NCBI GenBank assembly: GCA_004321885.1
Contig: SCQK01000006.1
Location: 1 to 40,129 of the forward strand
Direction of reading: 5' to 3'
Length of the DNA: 40,129 bases
From: Patescibacteria group bacterium
GTDB lineage: Bacteria; Patescibacteriota; Patescibacteriia; Magasanikbacterales; GWA2-37-8
This document shows positions 12,150 to 31,772 of this stretch, piece after piece (the stretch's first letter is position 1; the number at the start of each line of letters is the position of its first letter). Made by a program: the position numbers and the translations under genes. Under the pieces are notes generated by a model that saw nothing but the letters and a program-made list of their open reading frames with translations, searched no databases and had not been told where the DNA came from.

Positions 12150-12220
12150 GCGGGTATTGTATAACGGTATTACCGCAGGTTTCCAACCTGCTGACACGGG
12201 TTCGACTCCCGTTACCCGCT
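12150..12220 (+). tRNA. tRNA-Gly (anticodon TCC)
   Basis: Acceptor stem GCGGGTA/TACCCGC, anticodon stem GCAGG/CCTGC with loop TTTCCAA, T-loop GGTTCGACTCC; no encoded CCA. Confidence 0.8.
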
Positions 12221-14153: not shown

Positions 14154-14225
14154 GCGGGTGTAGCACAATGGTTAGTGCGTGTGCTTGCCAAGCATAAGAC
14201 GAGGGTTCGATTCCCTTCACCCGCT
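14154..14225 (+). tRNA. tRNA-Gly (anticodon GCC)
   Basis: Acceptor GCGGGTG/CACCCGC, D-arm GCAC..GTGC, anticodon loop TTGCCAA, T-loop GGTTCGATTCC. Confidence 0.8.
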
Positions 14226-14226
14226 C

Positions 14227-14299
14227 AGCGGGGTAGAGCAACTGGCAGCTCGCAGGGCCCATAACCCTGAGGTTCCCGGTTCAAGTCCGGGCCCCGCAA
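14227..14299 (+). tRNA. initiator tRNA-fMet (anticodon CAT)
   Basis: Anticodon loop CCCATAA; three consecutive G:C pairs closing the anticodon stem (GGG/CCC), a 1:72 A*A mismatch and an A11:U24 pair, all hallmarks of bacterial initiator tRNA; starts 1-2 nt after tRNA-Gly. Confidence 0.75.
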
Positions 14300-24388: not shown

Positions 24389-25414
24389 TTATAATAAATT
24401 TTGTGTTTTTGGCGCGTCGTGCCTCAGATGTCTGTAGGCCGCGGCGGTGGCTTTGCGGCCGCGCGGGGTGCGTTCCAAAAAGCCGATTTGCAAAAGGAAC
24501 GGTTCGCAGATGGTTTCAATGGTGTCCATTTCTTCGCTGATGGCCGCGGCCAGGGTGTTTAGCCCGGTGGGGCCGCCGCTGAATTTTTCTATCAAAGCGC
24601 CGAGCAGGCGGCGGTCAATGTCATCCAGTCCGTATTCGTCCACGGCCAGCATATCCAGCGCGGCCGAGGCGGTTTTTTCGTTCACGCCCTCTTCGTCTTT
24701 TACCTGCGCGAAGTCGCGGATGCGGCGCAAGAGCCGGTTGGCGATGCGCGGGGTGCGGCGGCTGCGTTTGGCGATGACCGAGGCGGCTTCGGGCTCAAGC
24801 CGGACTCCCAAGATGGTGGCGTTGCGGCGCAGAATTTTTTCCACGTCTTCGTGTTCGTAAAAATTGAGGTGAAAAGTGTGGCCAAAGCGGTCGCGCAGAG
24901 GAGCCGAGAGCATGCTCATTTTGGTGGTGGCGCCGATGAGGGTGAAGCGAGCCAATGGCATGCGGATACTGCGGGCGGTCGGTCCTTTGCCGATGATAAT
25001 ATCCAAAACATAATCCTCCAAAGCCGGGTAAAGCACTTCTTCTATGCTTTTGTTGAGTCGGTGAATTTCATCAATAAACAGCACGTCGCCCTCTTGCAGA
25101 TTGGAAAGTATGGCGGCCAGGTCGCCCACCTTTTCCATGGCCGGTCCGGACGTTATTTTTATGCTGTTGTTCATTTCATGGGCGATAATATGCGCCAGGG
25201 TGGTTTTGCCCAAACCCGGGTTGCCGTAAAGCAAAACATGTTCCAGATTTTCGCCGCGCTGTTTGGCTGCCTGCATGGAAATGCCGAGGTTTTGTTTGAT
25301 CTGTTCCTGGCCCACAAAATCGGCCAATTGCTTTGGGCGCAGGGTAATATCAAAAATCACGTCGTCTTGCTCGACTTGGGGTTCTATGACTCTGGGTTCG
25401 GCTTCGGTGTCCAT
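24389..25414 (-). CDS. ruvB: Holliday junction branch migration helicase RuvB
   Basis: 341 aa; Walker [12 protein letters not shown], Walker B DEIHRL, sensor/arginine finger and C-terminal winged helix; SD from element A7. Confidence 0.9.
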
Positions 25415-25487: not shown

Positions 25488-25516
25488 TTGACAATATCGC
25501 AAAAATGTGCTATTAT
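25488..25516 (+). promoter_or_regulatory. consensus sigma70 promoter (TTGACA-17-TATTAT) for the 25646 gene
   Basis: TTGACA at 25488-25493, 17-nt spacer, TATTAT at 25511-25516. Confidence 0.55.
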
Positions 25517-25645: not shown

Positions 25646-26281
25646 ATGATGAATCTTGTGAAGAAGACCTACCTGGTTTGCGAGTTCGCTCCTGCCTTCC
25701 TGGACATCGTGGATGACGGGGAGCGCGGCGGTTTGTATCTGCCGGGCATCATGGATGCGTTGAAGCAGCTCAGAGAGGTTGAGATCTCATCTCGTGATCT
25801 CTCTCAACTCAAAATCCCGGAAGGTGTTTACCGCTTTCGCTTCTTTGACTGCCTGGAGGCGATTGTGAAAGAAGCGGGGGAGAAAGTCGTTCTCCGTAGC
25901 AAGGAGATGAGCCATTCCCCGTGGCATTACTCGGAGGAACAGGGCCGCCTGTTCACGCCGGACATGCCTGACTTCCTCACCGAGGAGGAAGACAAACGGC
26001 TGGACGAAGCTGGTCTGACCTGGGAGAAAAACCACGACGAGCTGGAGAAGTGGTGTCTCCGAGAGGCGGATCAGAAACTACTCACGCGCCTTCGACAGGT
26101 AAGGTGTATCGTGAAGCGCGCGTTCGTTCTCTTCCGTCTTCCGGACACTACGTCCTATGACCAGGACACGGTTTCCTTGGAGGACAGCGACATCTTCCTC
26201 CCCCGTGGGGAGATCGAGATCGACAACATCGTCGACCGTTGGGAGAACCCCAACGCCAGACATTTCTGCGTTCCTTGCTAG
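25646..26281 (+). CDS. hypothetical protein (GC-rich island gene)
   Basis: 211 aa; SD AAAGGAGA 7 nt upstream; acidic, no recognised motif; GC-rich relative to flanks; followed by a weak hairpin + T-run (26361-26386). Confidence 0.5.
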   Translation: MMNLVKKTYLVCEFAPAFLDIVDDGERGGLYLPGIMDALKQLREVEISSRDLSQLKIPEGVYRFRFFDCLEAIVKEAGEKVVLRSKEMSHSPWHYSEEQGRLFTPDMPDFLTEEEDKRLDEAGLTWEKNHDELEKWCLREADQKLLTRLRQVRCIVKRAFVLFRLPDTTSYDQDTVSLEDSDIFLPRGEIEIDNIVDRWENPNARHFCVPC

Positions 26282-26395
26282 CATCCCAATCTCCGCGTTA
26301 AGTCGCGGAAGGAGGTGCCTCGCCGGAATCTGTGCAAGTAGTTTCCGGCCAATCAAAAAGCAGATTTCAACGAAGTCTGTTTTTTGTTTAACCTC

Positions 26396-26424
26396 TTGAA
26401 AAACGGCTCTTTTCGTGCTATAAT
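26396..26424 (+). promoter_or_regulatory. consensus sigma70 promoter (TTGAAA-17-TATAAT) of the two-gene AbiEii-like module
   Basis: -35 at 26396-26401, spacer 17, -10 at 26419-26424; first ATG at 26443. Confidence 0.6.
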
Positions 26425-26442
26425 ATCAATAGAAGATATTGT

Positions 26443-26667
26443 ATGAATGTAGCTCTCAATATCAAAAATTTATTATGGGATGTTGACGCAAAAAAAGTGG
26501 ATGCAAGCAAACACAAAAGTTTTTTAATTTCGCGAATTTCTGAAAAAGGCGGTACGCGAGAAATAGCCTGGTTGCGCCGCCAATATTCGGATAAAGACAT
26601 CAAGAAAATCGTGGCGAAAAGCCGCAATGTTTCGGCAAAGACAAAAAATTTTTGGAAGCTGTTTTAA
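26443..26667 (+). CDS. small protein (74 aa) translationally coupled to the AbiEii-like nucleotidyltransferase; putative antitoxin/partner
   Basis: Lys-rich 74-aa ORF directly downstream of a consensus promoter; its stop TAA is immediately followed by the ATG of the next gene (TAATATG). Confidence 0.5.
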   Translation: MNVALNIKNLLWDVDAKKVDASKHKSFLISRISEKGGTREIAWLRRQYSDKDIKKIVAKSRNVSAKTKNFWKLF

Positions 26668-26668
26668 T

Positions 26669-27298
26669 ATGTTTTATCCAGAGGCGCTGACCGCGGAATC
26701 AATCGCTTTAATAAAAAAAATTAATGCGAGCAAATGGCTGTCTGATTTTTATTTGGCCGGCGGTACGGGTTTGGCTTTATGGTATGGCCATCGGCAATCG
26801 GTTGATTTGGATTTTTTTAGAAAAAGCGATATTGCCACCAAGCAATTGATAAAAAAATTGTCTTCGCTCGGCAGATTCAAATTATTGAATGAAGAAGAAA
26901 ACACGGTGGAGGGGATACTGGAAAAGGTGAAAGTTAGTTTCATGACTTATCCGTATGGTTTGTTGCGCAAGCGTCAGCCGTATGATGGCGTTATCTTTTT
27001 AGCAGAACCATTGGATATCGCCGTCATGAAAGTCGGAGCGATCGCCGACAGAAATACGAAGAAAGATTTTATTGACCTGTATGTTTTTTTACGGCGCGAG
27101 AACATGAGTTTAAAAAATTTGTTATCGCATCTGCGAAAAAAATTCAGCCGCGTGAATTACGATATTTTTCATTTATACAAATCCCTTGTCTATTTTGAGG
27201 ATGCCGACAAAGAACCTATGCCGAGGATGTTTATTGATTTAAAATGGGAAAAGGTCAGGCGATTTTTTAAAGACGAGGTTAGGAAGCTGGTGGCATGA
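26669..27298 (+). CDS. nucleotidyltransferase of the AbiEii/AbiGii (DUF1814-like) toxin family
   Basis: ORF 26627..27298, start re-chosen at 26669; LAGGTGLALWYGHRQSVDLDFF matches the GGTAL..HR.S.DLDF nucleotidyltransferase signature of AbiEii-type proteins. Confidence 0.6.
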   Translation: MFYPEALTAESIALIKKINASKWLSDFYLAGGTGLALWYGHRQSVDLDFFRKSDIATKQLIKKLSSLGRFKLLNEEENTVEGILEKVKVSFMTYPYGLLRKRQPYDGVIFLAEPLDIAVMKVGAIADRNTKKDFIDLYVFLRRENMSLKNLLSHLRKKFSRVNYDIFHLYKSLVYFEDADKEPMPRMFIDLKWEKVRRFFKDEVRKLVA

Positions 27299-27336
27299 GT
27301 ATCCGGCTTGGCATAAGCCCGGCCCGCTATCCGTTT

Positions 27337-27360
27337 TCCCCCGAAAGGGGGATTTTTTTA
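27337..27360 (+). terminator. rho-independent terminator
   Basis: TCCCCC-GAAA-GGGGGA followed by TTTTTTT. Confidence 0.75.
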
Positions 27361-27463
27361 AATTCTACGGTGTGGATAACTAATTTAGTATGAGTTTATA
27401 GGAGTTGACTTTTTGGCGAGGATAAGGCAAAATTCGCCTGCTTTGGGCACCCCCTTGCAAGTG

Positions 27464-27472
27464 TGGTATAAT
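27464..27472 (+). promoter_or_regulatory. extended -10 promoter (TGgTATAAT) upstream of nrdJ
   Basis: TGnTATAAT at 27464-27472, ~150-nt structured leader before the nrdJ ATG at 27626. Confidence 0.5.
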
Positions 27473-27496
27473 AGCATCCGCGTCAGTAAGAAAATA

Positions 27497-27538
27497 CCAC
27501 ATCTTGTGGTCTAACCGCGCTTAAAATACTATATATAG
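27497..27538 (+). promoter_or_regulatory. two NrdR-box-like palindromes (CCACATCTTGTGG and CTATATATAG) spaced ~31 bp centre to centre
   Basis: Box 1 at 27497-27509 and box 2 at 27529-27538 lie just downstream of the promoter; spacing and the CwAtATaTwG core resemble NrdR operators recalled from the literature. Confidence 0.4.
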
Positions 27539-27625: not shown

Positions 27626-30600
27626 ATGGTAAATAACCTCGCCACCAAGACATTTGTTCTGGATACTGACTTCAAATACGCGCCGGAAACCGGTTTGCGT
27701 TTTAAGCGGCATTTTACCAAAGCAGGCGCTAATCCTTATGATTTGTTCACTTACGAGTTGCGCTCGTCCCTTATCCGCGAGCCCAGCGGCCAGATTGTGT
27801 TTGAAATGAAAGAGGTGGAAGTGCCTGTTACCTGGTCCCAGGTGGCCACCGACATTTTAGCGCAAAAATATTTTCGCAAGGCCGGAGTGCCGAAATATAA
27901 TCCGGACGGCTCGCCCATGCTTGGGGCCGACGGGCTACCGGTACTCGGCTGCGAAACCAGCATTAAGCAGGTGGCGCACCGAATGGCCGGCACCTGGCGG
28001 TATTGGGGAGAGAAGTACGGCTATTTTGCCTCGGCCGAGGACGCGCAGGTGTTTTACGACGAGCTGGCCTACATGCTCATCGCCCAGATGGCCGCGCCCA
28101 ACTCGCCCCAGTGGTTCAACACCGGTTTGTACTGGGCTTATGGCATCAATGGCCCGGCCCAGGGGCATTATTATACCGACCATAACACGGACATCACCCA
28201 GCTTTCGCCTGATGCCTATTCACGAAGTCAGGCGCACGCGTGTTTTATCCAAGGAGTCAAAGATGACTTGGTAAATGAAGGAGGAATTATGGATTTATGG
28301 CTGCGCGAAGCGCGGATATTTAAATATGGTTCGGGCACTGGCACAAATTTTTCGGCTTTGCGCGGCGCCGGCGAAACACTTTCCGGCGGCGGCACCTCCT
28401 CGGGCTTGATGAGCTGGCTTAAAATCGGGGACCGCGCGGCCGGGGCCATTAAATCCGGCGGCACCACGCGCCGCGCCGCCAAAATGGTAATCCTAAACAT
28501 TGACCATCCGGACATTGAAGAATTTATTGACTGGAAAGTGCGCGAGGAAAAAAAAGTGGCGGCTCTGATCGCCGCCGGCTATGATAATGCCTATGAGGGC
28601 GAGGCCTACCAGACCGTTTCCGGACAAAATTCAAACAACTCGGTGCGCGTGTCCCAGGAATTTTTGGAAGCCGTGGAAAGTGACAGTGACTGGAAATTAA
28701 CCTGGCGCACCGACCCCGACAAATTCAAAGCTGTTAAGGCAAAAAAATTGTGGGATAAAATCGCTTCGGCGGCCTGGTCCTGCGCCGACCCGGGCGTGCA
28801 ATTTGACACCAATATCAACGACTGGCACACCTGCCCAAAATCGGGCCGTATCAATGCCAGCAATCCTTGCGCGGAATTTATGTACCTGGACTCAAGCGCT
28901 TGTAATCTCGCTTCCATCAACCTGGCGCATTTTTATGACGCGGATAATTTGACCTTTGATGCAGACGGATTTAAGTACACTTCGCGCTTGTGGACTGTGG
29001 TTTTGGAAATCAGTATTTTGATGGCTCAATTTCCAAGCTATGAGATTGCCAGAACCACTCAAGACACCCGCAGTCTGGGTTTGGGCTATGCCAATATCGG
29101 CAGTGTGCTGATGACCGCGGGCCTGCCCTATGATTCGCCCGAGGCCATGGCTTTCGCCGGCGCTGTTACCGCCCTCATGACCGCCGAGTCGTTCGCCGCC
29201 TCGGCCGAGCTGGCCAAAAATTTGGGGGCGTTCAAGTATTTTGCCGCTAATCGCGATGACATGTTGCGTGTGGCGCGCAATCACCGGCGCGCGGCTTACA
29301 GCGCCCCGGCGGAAGAGTACGAAGGCATCGCCATTAAGCCCGCCGGCATAAATGAACAGTACGCGCCGGCTTATCTGCTGGCCGAGGCGCGCGCGGCCTG
29401 GGACAGGGCCCTGGAGCTGGGGGAAAAATACGGCTTTCGCAACGCCCAGCTCACCCTGCTCGCGCCTACCGGCACCATCGGCCTGGTAATGGACTGCGCC
29501 ACCACCGGCGTGGAGCCGGATTTCGCTTTGGTGAAATTTAAAAAATTGGCCGGCGGTGGATATTTTAAGATTGTCAACGAATCCGTGCCCGTGGCTTTGC
29601 GCGTGCTGGGCTACAGCGACTTGCAGATAAATGATGTAGTGAATTATTTGCGCGGACACTCCACTTTGCGTCAGGCCCCGCATATCAATCATCAAACTTT
29701 GCTGGAGAAAGGCTTTACGGCCGATGAGCTGGACAAATTGGAAAAAGCCCTGCCCATGAGTTTTGAATTGCAGTTTGCCCTAAATGTTTGGACACTGGGT
29801 GAGGACTGCCTGAAACGGCTGGGCTTTACCAGCGAGCAGTATAATGACAATAATTTTAATTTGCTGGCGGCGCTGGGATTTTCCGCCGATGATATAGCGG
29901 CGGCCAATGAATATGTTTGCGGGGCCATGACCATAGAAGGCGCGCCGCATTTGCGCAAAGAGCATTACGCGGTGTTTGACACGGCCAACAAGAACGGCAA
30001 AAAAGGCCAGCGCTACATTCATTACCTCGGCCACATCCGCATGATGGCCGCGGTCCAGCCGTTTCTTTCCGGCGCCATTTCTAAAACCATAAACATGCCG
30101 AACGAGGCGACGATAGACGACGTCAAAACCGCTTACGTGGCCTCATGGAAACTTGGGCTCAAGGCCGTTGCTTTGTATCGTGATGGGTGCAAGCTGTCGC
30201 AACCCTTGTCCGCGAAATCAAATAAGAAAAAAGAGGACAAGGCTGAGGAGCCGGTCAATGCCGCGCCCGCCCAGTATGTTTTGACCGATAAAAGCGACCA
30301 CGTGATTCGTCAGATGATTTCTGAAACCCAGGCCATGACCAAGTACGCGCACGACGGCTCCAGCCAGGGCACGAAAATTTACATTCACGGCGAACAGCGC
30401 AAGATGCCGTACAAGAGAAGCGGGCTGACGATTAAAGCCAAGGTCGCGGGCCAAAAAATATTCTTGCGCACCGGCGAGTATCCGGACGGCAAACTGGGCG
30501 AGATATTTATTGATATGTATAAAGAGGGCGCGGCTTTTCGTAGTTTGCTCAATTGTCTGGCCATCTCCATTTCCACGGGCCTGCAATACGGCATACCATT

Positions 30601-31069
30601 GGAAGAATACGTGGAAAAATTTACTTTTACGCGCTTTGAGCCCAGCGGCATGACCGACCACCCGAACGTGCGCTCGTGCACCTCCATCATTGATTTTGTC
30701 TTCCGCGTGCTGGGCATGGAATATCTGGGGCGGATGGATTTTGTGCAGGTGAAACCGGTCGGCATCCAAAAAAACCGGGCCGAGCAGATGGCGAAATTGG
30801 CGGCCGAGAAAGCCGGGCAGAGATTGCTGGAGTTAAACGGGGCGGAGACGGAAATTGAAGAAGTGGAAGAAATAGTTCAGCCGAGTTTGCCCAATATGCC
30901 GCGGACAGACGCGGCGGGAAAAGGCGAGGTGACTTCCGACGCAATGAACCAGCAACTCGCGGGCATGATGGGCGACGCGCCGCCGTGCGCTACTTGCGGG
31001 CATGTCACTATACGAAACGGCAGTTGCTATAAGTGTTTGAATTGCGGGAGTACGACCGGGTGTTCTTGA
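27626..31069 (+). CDS. nrdJ: adenosylcobalamin-dependent ribonucleotide reductase (class II)
   Basis: 1147 aa; N-terminal ATP-cone-like region, RNR active-site Cys/Asn/Glu blocks (NPCAEFMYLDSSACNLASINL), C-terminal Zn-ribbon CATCGHVTIRNGSCYKCLNCGSTTGC typical of class II RNR. Confidence 0.9.
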   Translation: MVNNLATKTFVLDTDFKYAPETGLRFKRHFTKAGANPYDLFTYELRSSLIREPSGQIVFEMKEVEVPVTWSQVATDILAQKYFRKAGVPKYNPDGSPMLGADGLPVLGCETSIKQVAHRMAGTWRYWGEKYGYFASAEDAQVFYDELAYMLIAQMAAPNSPQWFNTGLYWAYGINGPAQGHYYTDHNTDITQLSPDAYSRSQAHACFIQGVKDDLVNEGGIMDLWLREARIFKYGSGTGTNFSALRGAGETLSGGGTSSGLMSWLKIGDRAAGAIKSGGTTRRAAKMVILNIDHPDIEEFIDWKVREEKKVAALIAAGYDNAYEGEAYQTVSGQNSNNSVRVSQEFLEAVESDSDWKLTWRTDPDKFKAVKAKKLWDKIASAAWSCADPGVQFDTNINDWHTCPKSGRINASNPCAEFMYLDSSACNLASINLAHFYDADNLTFDADGFKYTSRLWTVVLEISILMAQFPSYEIARTTQDTRSLGLGYANIGSVLMTAGLPYDSPEAMAFAGAVTALMTAESFAASAELAKNLGAFKYFAANRDDMLRVARNHRRAAYSAPAEEYEGIAIKPAGINEQYAPAYLLAEARAAWDRALELGEKYGFRNAQLTLLAPTGTIGLVMDCATTGVEPDFALVKFKKLAGGGYFKIVNESVPVALRVLGYSDLQINDVVNYLRGHSTLRQAPHINHQTLLEKGFTADELDKLEKALPMSFELQFALNVWTLGEDCLKRLGFTSEQYNDNNFNLLAALGFSADDIAAANEYVCGAMTIEGAPHLRKEHYAVFDTANKNGKKGQRYIHYLGHIRMMAAVQPFLSGAISKTINMPNEATIDDVKTAYVASWKLGLKAVALYRDGCKLSQPLSAKSNKKKEDKAEEPVNAAPAQYVLTDKSDHVIRQMISETQAMTKYAHDGSSQGTKIYIHGEQRKMPYKRSGLTIKAKVAGQKIFLRTGEYPDGKLGEIFIDMYKEGAAFRSLLNCLAISISTGLQYGIPLEEYVEKFTFTRFEPSGMTDHPNVRSCTSIIDFVFRVLGMEYLGRMDFVQVKPVGIQKNRAEQMAKLAAEKAGQRLLELNGAETEIEEVEEIVQPSLPNMPRTDAAGKGEVTSDAMNQQLAGMMGDAPPCATCGHVTIRNGSCYKCLNCGSTTGCS

Positions 31070-31690: not shown

Positions 31691-31772
31691 TGGTCCGGGT
31701 GGGAATCGAACCCACATGCCTTGCGGCACGAGATTTTAAGTCTCGCGTGTATGCCAGTTCCACCACCGGACC
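31691..31772 (-). tRNA. tRNA-Leu (anticodon TAA)
   Basis: On the minus strand: acceptor GGTCCGG/CCGGACC, anticodon stem-loop CGAGA-CTTAAAA-TCTCG, long variable arm TGCCGCAAGGCATG (class II), T-loop GGTTCGATTCC. Confidence 0.8.

Follow-up and report, generated by a model that had tools for sequence, protein, structure and literature searches.

A compact two-gene operon in a metagenome-assembled genome of a Patescibacteria group bacterium is, in our view, probably a toxin–antitoxin (TA) module in which a small DUF6922 protein binds and neutralises a MenT-like tRNA nucleotidyltransferase (NTase). The operon spans positions 26396-27360 of a 40-kb contig, the whole of which (40,129 nucleotides) is called the window here, and consists of a promoter, a first open reading frame (ORF1) of 74 amino acids, a second (ORF2) of 209 amino acids, and an intrinsic terminator. 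ORF2 is the proposed toxin and ORF1 the proposed antitoxin. The evidence is direct for gene structure, family membership, conserved pairing, co-inheritance, an intact active site, and a genetic asymmetry between partner and NTase. The linkage of DUF6922 to DUF1814 NTases, and with it the likely antitoxin role, appears to be new: a full-text search of a literature library for DUF6922 and PF21956 found no paper on the family, and PADLOC contains no model of DUF6922 and returned no match for ORF1.

The gene pair and its relatives

ORF2 (26669-27298, plus strand) is assigned to the AbiEii/DUF1814 NTases, and to their MenT-like members, by profile, motif and fold. It matches Pfam family PF08843 (AbiEii) with 57.4 bits against a cut-off of 22.5 (E=2.7e-15; residues 18-195, profile positions 6-218 of 238). 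Residues A30-G31-G32, followed after 13 positions by D46-L47-D48-F49, fit the catalytic pattern hG[GS]x9-13Dh[DE]h, and G31, G32, S44, D46, D48, D116, K121 and D136 are the same in all 93 paired homologues. These residues and T33 are the key positions of the predicted active site, in which D46 and D48 would hold Mg2+ and S44 is a putative phospho-acceptor. The AlphaFold2 (AF2) model, with a mean predicted local distance difference test score (pLDDT) of 95.6, has the bi-lobed NTase fold of DUF1814 proteins, and its best fold matches in the PDB, as found by Foldseek, are Helicobacter pylori 4OK0 and the MenT1 structures 8AN4, 8AN5 and 8RR5 (probability 1.0, template-modelling (TM) scores 0.51-0.59). 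At E<=1e-3, ORF2 has relatives in more than 3,800 clusters of 90% identity, of which the 120 best are uniformly ~205-215 amino acids long, and many of these come from the Candidate Phyla Radiation (CPR). A start at the in-frame ATG at 26627, which would lengthen the protein to 223 amino acids, was rejected because the N-termini of homologues line up with 26669.

ORF1 (26443-26667, plus strand) is a short form of DUF6922. Its match to Pfam family PF21956 scores 54.7 bits against a cut-off of 27 (E=7e-15; residues 8-57, profile positions 3-52 of 52), and all 81 of its aligned relatives match the same family. The protein is annotated at NCBI as hypothetical protein EPN28_01445, and the only names given to family members across sources are "hypothetical protein" and "DUF6922 domain-containing protein". 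Even a narrow profile built from five sequences recovers at least 942 cluster representatives at 50% identity, and the 150 best-scoring members are nearly all stand-alone proteins of 74-110 amino acids. NCBIfam has no match for ORF1 or ORF2, and a search of PDB sequences with the partner found nothing. In its AF2 model (pLDDT 88) ORF1 is a compact bundle of five helices, for which there was no match among PDB folds, helix-turn-helix (HTH)-like and AbiEi/MenA structures included.

Most members of DUF6922 are 94-100 amino acids long and end in a conserved tail of ~25 residues (…LDKxxILCLKKSFxxxxKxIWxY), which is encoded where the gene overlaps the beginning of the NTase gene, out of frame, over a conserved 52 nucleotides. 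The 74-amino-acid form in the window is C-terminally truncated, and belongs to a clade of Magasanikbacteria, Falkowbacteria and related CPR lineages that has lost both tail and overlap. The core residues W12, D13, R31, G36, W43, F70 and W71 are all kept in this clade.

A preliminary description of this locus, made from its sequence alone, had proposed a 74-amino-acid, lysine-rich partner (the protein has 13 Lys, with 5 Arg, and an isoelectric point (pI) of 10.4) and an AbiEii-type NTase of 210 amino acids. Both genes are as described, save that ORF2 is one residue shorter, and the alignment on which its catalytic motif was to be checked retains that motif throughout. The partner had also been judged not to be a canonical AbiEi regulator and to have no HTH, which agrees with the missing fold match and with the absence of any match to families AbiEi_1-4 among 81 DUF6922 members at E<=0.1. 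The further suggestion that this may be a novel partner type also holds: the family is distinct and occurs almost always with this NTase subfamily, with the refinement that DUF6922 is already catalogued in Pfam and that only its role is new.

The two genes travel together. We took the best 80 genome loci with NTase relatives (34-55% identity), added the window, and searched the six-frame ORFs of these 81 loci with a hidden Markov model (HMM) built from the partner. The loci represent more than 15 phyla, and include many CPR lineages, Acidobacteriota, Planctomycetota, Chloroflexota, Bacteroidota, Desulfobacterota, Cyanobacteriota, Elusimicrobia and a Pacearchaeota archaeon. Immediately 5' of the NTase gene and on its strand, 79 of the 81 have a DUF6922 ORF, and locus L042, where the estimated overlap is larger, brings the number to 80. 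Searches anchored on the partner agree: in metagenomes, where our narrow partner alignment returns close relatives only, an NTase gene lies just downstream in 14 of 16 informative loci, and in look-ups of diverse DUF6922 proteins with independent gene calls it does so in six of six. Gene pairs overlap or are at most 10 nucleotides apart in 84% of cases, the commonest arrangement being the 52-nucleotide overlap. Pairwise distances among partners covary with those among NTases (Mantel r=0.65, reached by none of 999 permutations). Nearly all relatives, in many phyla, show the pairing, which makes DUF6922 a probable new type of antitoxin for a toxin already known.

The sole real exception is L019, an Acidobacteriota contig (CAVUDA010000034.1, 1-3555) in which ~2.6 kb of inserted IS66 DNA, with TnpB_IS66 (134 bits) and HTH_Tnp_1 (59 bits) domains, separates DUF6922 from the NTase. 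The native N-terminus of this NTase is gone, and its sequence has VDLYFF in place of VDLDFF, which corresponds to D48Y in the DxD motif. The only NTase severed from its partner is, to judge from these changes, catalytically disabled, a natural instance of toxin inactivation after lost coupling. Two partners without an NTase (L090 and L092, one of them decayed or truncated) were seen, and no intact orphan NTase was found among the loci surveyed. A TA pair is expected to show just this asymmetry, in which orphan partners are tolerated and orphan NTases are not, and the generic marks of such a pair, namely conserved adjacency, co-inheritance and orphan asymmetry, are all found here.

The module also has traits of a mobile, selfish element, including low GC content, tandem copies, and plasmid and phage-like locations. 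Three modules stand in tandem in L074 (1-3627, Levybacteria) and two in L032 (1701-3615, Anaerolineae), each within 2-4 kb. Some divergent pairs fall under the HMM threshold, such as a second copy in L008 and the module on plasmid ece1 of Aquifex aeolicus (L081, 2308-3112), whose partner is annotated as a hypothetical protein. Another module is located on a phage-like scaffold, the unverified gut phage scaffold MT835926 (L114, 1717-2705). Distant AbiEii relatives (26-30% identity), found in IMG/VR contigs and in Acidiphilium plasmid pACMV1, have no DUF6922 gene, and the pairing is therefore specific to the NTase subfamily of ~205-215 amino acids.

In some lineages the partner is joined by a DNA-binding domain, so that three-part variants of the system exist. 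DUF6922 carries a fused XRE-type HTH (HTH_31/HTH_3, above cut-off) at its N-terminus in L012 (2238-3023), L040 (2447-2995) and L100 (1783-2319), and separate HTH genes lie directly upstream in L094 (HTH_17, 2223-2489) and L105 (a weak MerR_1 match). A fusion of HTH and DUF6922 has the layout of a classic antitoxin, in which DUF6922 looks like the part that handles the toxin; such a role would explain why most members, including that of the window, have no HTH.

Locus layout, composition and neighbouring genes

The operon begins with a sigma-70-type promoter with a TG extension (26396-26424, plus strand), which consists of a -35 box TTGAAA at 26396-26401, a spacer of 17 nucleotides with TG at 26416-26417, and a -10 box TATAAT at 26419-26424. 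It agrees with the consensus at 11 of 12 positions and is the joint best site in a scan of 2.4 kb. This AT-rich stretch contains 11 promoter-like sites where 3.2 are expected, and the match is therefore weak evidence by itself. The ATG of ORF1 lies ~12 nucleotides 3' of the expected transcription start. At the junction of the two genes (TAAtATG), a single base separates the TAA stop codon of ORF1 from the ATG at 26669, and translation of the two is therefore probably coupled. A Shine-Dalgarno-like GGAAG for the NTase gene can be read at 26654-26658 (plus strand), within the 3' end of ORF1 and 10 nucleotides 5' of the ATG. The operon ends in an intrinsic terminator at 27337-27359 (plus strand), composed of a hairpin (UCCCCC-GAAA-GGGGGA, 27337-27352) and seven U residues. 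The preliminary description had already placed the promoter, the abutting stop and start codons, and a strong terminator as they are given here. It had also seen the flanking gene as a GC-rich island, and in this it was mistaken: the window averages 50.6% GC, and the outlier is the module itself at 39.8%. GC content at third codon positions (GC3) is 0.41 and 0.47 in the module genes versus 0.65-0.72 in their neighbours. Because the module is a compositional outlier in both measures, it was probably acquired horizontally.

Two inverted repeats occur near the promoter. An AT-rich repeat with 18-nucleotide arms that are 83% complementary (26351-26389) lies just 5' of the -35 box. The drop in GC content starts at this repeat, at the left edge of the low-GC insert, and the repeat is probably a terminator or boundary of the preceding gene. 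The other, a candidate operator at 26419-26443 with 9-nucleotide arms (TATAATATC / GATATTGTA), runs from the -10 box to the ATG of ORF1. We compared the best inverted repeat in the 80 nucleotides upstream of each of 97 partner genes with shuffled sequences. In this test the repeat in the window has no statistical support (p=0.14), and repeats at p<=0.05 precede 20% of the 97 genes and are mostly terminators of preceding genes. On these grounds the repeat is not taken to support autoregulation.

The neighbours of the module are housekeeping genes, namely ruvB on the minus strand (24389-25414) and a gene for a class II ribonucleotide reductase (27626-31069). Between ruvB and the module is an acidic ORF of 211 amino acids (25646-26281, pI 4.8, GC3 0.72), which has its own near-consensus promoter (TTGACA-17-TATTAT, 25488-25516) and matches nothing in Pfam, NCBIfam or PADLOC. 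We considered this ORF as a third component and rejected it, given its differing GC3, its own promoter and the lack of a homologue in related loci. In three metagenome contigs (L101-L103; genes at 899-3935 in L101), a related module lies directly upstream of ruvA, with its stop codon overlapping the ruvA start, and adjoins a diversity-generating retroelement (RVT_1 and bAvd). The occurrence of ruvA beside those modules and of ruvB 1 kb from that of the window may be a coincidence or may reflect a preferred insertion neighbourhood in CPR genomes.

On the other side of the module, a promoter-like sequence (TGGGCA-17-TATAAT, 27444-27472) precedes the ribonucleotide reductase gene. It is followed by the palindromes ACCACATCTTGTGGT (27496-27510) and ACTATATATAG (27528-27538), whose centres are ~31 bp apart and which resemble a tandem NrdR-box operator. 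No riboswitch was detected at Rfam gathering thresholds upstream of this gene, and no Rfam family was matched inside or adjoining the module. The window has four tRNA genes (12150-12220; 14154-14225 and 14227-14299, which are adjacent; 31691-31772). None of them adjoins the module, and there is thus no sign of integration at a tRNA site.

Proposed function and alternative explanations

The operon is probably a self-contained, horizontally acquired element of TA type. Its toxin would be a minimal DUF1814/AbiEii NTase of the MenT1 structural type that attaches nucleotides to tRNA 3' ends and so stops translation, an activity proposed for ORF2 by analogy with MenT1, MenT3, MenT4 and AbiEii. MenT1, MenT3 and MenT4 add nucleotides to tRNA 3' ends and stop translation (PMC7450476, PMC10435456), and AbiEii likewise modifies tRNA 3' ends and stops translation (bioRxiv 10.64898/2026.01.19.700257). 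The antitoxin would be the 74-amino-acid DUF6922 protein, a dedicated partner translated first from the shared transcript, and DUF6922 would most likely neutralise the NTase by binding to it directly. Because the DUF6922 protein of the window has no DNA-binding domain, transcription from the strong promoter is probably constitutive, or else controlled in trans.

Binding may also induce the NTase to phosphorylate itself. The DUF1814 toxins studied are inactivated by antitoxin-induced auto-phosphorylation of a Ser or Thr two residues before the DxD motif, although their antitoxins are structurally unrelated (PMC11375011), and the label "type IV" is giving way to auto-phosphorylation, or type VII (PMC11375011; bioRxiv 10.64898/2026.01.19.700257). 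Known phosphorylation sites are T39 in MenT1, S78 in MenT3 and T65 in AbiEii. Ser44 of ORF2 likewise lies two residues before DxD, and the invariance of this position makes antitoxin-induced auto-phosphorylation plausible. The more specific idea that DUF6922 is a widespread antitoxin of new fold, without a DNA-binding domain, that induces Ser44 auto-phosphorylation of minimal MenT-like NTases is offered as a tentative one, and we would sooner expect it to fail than to hold.

Several observations weigh against the proposed TA function. What the model says of toxicity, binding, target and phosphorylation is inferred by analogy. ORF2 resembles the DUF1814 toxins that have been studied too little to match any PDB entry by sequence: a search with the NTase profile found nothing meaningful (best E=0.064, to an unrelated protein). 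ORF2 is therefore a minimal and distant protein of the DUF1814 toxin fold. TM scores of ~0.5-0.6 for the predicted structure are likewise those of the same fold in a distant relative, and the AbiEii models of PADLOC match ORF2 weakly, with 30.7 bits at best. As ORF1 has no conserved C-terminal tail, its capacity to neutralise could differ from that of longer relatives. Finally, the partner is basic, unlike the usually acidic type II antitoxins, a property that suggests nucleic-acid binding or another mode of action, and the NTase family is basic as well (median pI 9.35 versus 9.7 for DUF6922).

The charge of DUF6922 speaks for a different explanation, which we think unlikely, namely that the protein binds nucleic acid and not the toxin, either as an autorepressor of the operon or as a type IV protector that shields tRNA 3' ends. 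The family has a net charge of +7, and 86% of its members have a pI above 8.5. The protein in the window has 18 Lys and Arg in 74 residues, and the motif conserved in the C-terminal helix, S-R-N-x-S-x-K-[ST]-x-N-F-W, has a polar and basic character. A palindrome with 9-nucleotide arms does cover the -10 box, and a few relatives, such as L060 and L073, have strong promoter palindromes, but the repeat in the window fails the shuffle test, and the upstream repeats of relatives that pass it are mostly terminators of preceding genes. Searches of DUF6922 brought up neither an HTH nor another nucleic-acid-binding fold, and lineages that need DNA binding append a separate XRE or HTH_17 domain, which argues that DUF6922 is not the DNA-binding part. 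Moreover, all studied DUF1814 antitoxins bind their toxin, including AbiEi, formerly of type IV (bioRxiv 10.64898/2026.01.19.700257).

Strict co-occurrence and co-evolution, on which the case for a TA module draws, fit an obligate heterodimer equally well. The pair could thus be a non-toxic enzyme of two subunits, acting in RNA 3'-end repair or tailing or in the nucleotidylation of small molecules or antibiotics, with DUF6922 as a specificity or activating subunit. Among the structures that the fold search returns are indeed the aminoglycoside nucleotidyltransferase ANT(2'')-Ia (TM 0.51/0.59) as well as polymerases of the CCA-adding or poly(A) kind, and the NTase active site is under strong purifying selection. 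We regard this as somewhat less probable still, because the pair is spread patchily over very distant phyla with foreign GC content, occurs as tandem duplicates, and shows the antitoxin layout in its HTH fusions. Moreover, the orphans found are partners, with no intact NTase among them, the separated NTase has changed DxD to DxY, and all characterised members of PF08843 are toxins (PMC3985639, PMC7450476, PMC10435456). It is highly improbable that ORF1 is a spurious or decaying gene beside a stand-alone or degenerate NTase, with a promoter that matches by chance in AT-rich DNA. Promoter-like hexamers are indeed common there, ORF1 is among the shortest proteins of its family and has no conserved tail, and NCBI labels it merely as hypothetical. 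However, it matches PF21956 at twice the cut-off, within a family whose breadth was given above, its AF2 model is confident, and the 74-amino-acid form recurs in several CPR lineages with core residues intact and an NTase attached. This conservation effectively refutes the idea.

With this locus, DUF6922 becomes a third and as yet unstudied family of partners in the toxin family, and the branch that pairs with it is large and spans many phyla. The DUF1814 toxins AbiEii and MenT1-4 are being actively studied, and one open question is if antitoxin-induced auto-phosphorylation controls them all, unrelated as their antitoxins are (PMC11375011; bioRxiv 10.64898/2026.01.19.700257). If the Ser44 proposal were true, such control would be universal among DUF1814 toxins, and no fewer than three antitoxin families of unrelated structure would have arrived at it independently. 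That TA toxins swap partners is to be expected; DUF6922 is still a broad and well-supported candidate for a new antitoxin family. An antitoxin role would also assign a function to a Pfam domain of unknown function and allow the module to be annotated in CPR and DPANN genomes, whose TA and defence content is poorly known. The pair, at 74 and 209 amino acids, is near the minimum size for such a system and therefore well suited to studies of structure, phosphorylation and tRNA targeting.

Comparison with known systems

The XRE-HTH–DUF6922 fusions upstream of NTase genes in L012, L040 and L100 resemble classic type II antitoxins, which combine a DNA-binding with a toxin-binding domain. The partner in the window and most other DUF6922 proteins differ from this type in having no DNA-binding domain and in being basic rather than acidic.

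With AbiEi–AbiEii and the other COG5340–DUF1814 pairs (MenAT3/4, RlegTA and SdenTA), the module shares a toxin in PF08843 and a bicistronic arrangement with the antitoxin gene first, here seen as one promoter, the TAAtATG junction and one terminator. The Ser or Thr before DxD (T65 in AbiEii, S78 in MenT3) is also kept, as S44 in ORF2. Unlike these pairs, the module has no AbiEi antitoxin, which would comprise a winged HTH and a C-terminal domain in ~170-300 amino acids, and ORF2 is ~80 residues shorter than a typical AbiEii. The gene upstream of ORF2 encodes no cognate AbiEi/COG5340 protein: in searches of Pfam, NCBIfam, PADLOC and PDB folds, ORF1 matches DUF6922 only. The module is therefore not an AbiE system as defined. 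AbiE of Streptococcus agalactiae gave no protection against 32 coliphages (bioRxiv 10.64898/2026.01.19.700257).

The best Foldseek match of ORF2 is 4OK0 of H. pylori (E=5e-5, TM 0.51/0.48), a putative NTase of similar size (225 amino acids) with only 16% identity in the structural alignment. We take 4OK0 to be the plasticity-zone protein JHP933.

MenA1–MenT1 of Mycobacterium tuberculosis (Rv0078B–Rv0078A) offers the most points of comparison. Both systems are bicistronic with the antitoxin gene first, and both lie in atypical, horizontally acquired regions (PMC10435456). Like MenT1, ORF2 is a minimal DUF1814 NTase (~190-210 amino acids), with MenT1 among its best fold matches in the PDB, although identity in the structural alignment is 16-19%. 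Both proteins have the pattern [ST]-x-D-x-D and a Lys followed by an Asp 15 residues on (T39/D41/D43 and K137/D152 in MenT1; PMC10435456), an equivalence that is drawn from the pattern and not from superposition of residues. ORF1 differs from MenA1 in structure and distribution. MenA1 binds by an extended alpha-helix (PMC11375011), whereas DUF6922 is an unrelated, compact five-helix bundle. MenA1 has 21 known homologues (PMC10435456), and DUF6922, with its many clusters, is found far more widely, across CPR, many other bacterial phyla and DPANN archaea. ORF1 was tested for homology to MenA1, the antitoxin that defines MenAT1-type systems, and is not a homologue. It is nonetheless as short as MenA1 (74 versus 68 amino acids) and similarly without a DNA-binding domain, and MenA1 is the sole precedent for such an antitoxin of a DUF1814 toxin (PMC10435456). 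By analogy, the pair in the window is thus most MenAT1-like, with a minimal NTase and a short putative antitoxin that has no DNA-binding domain.

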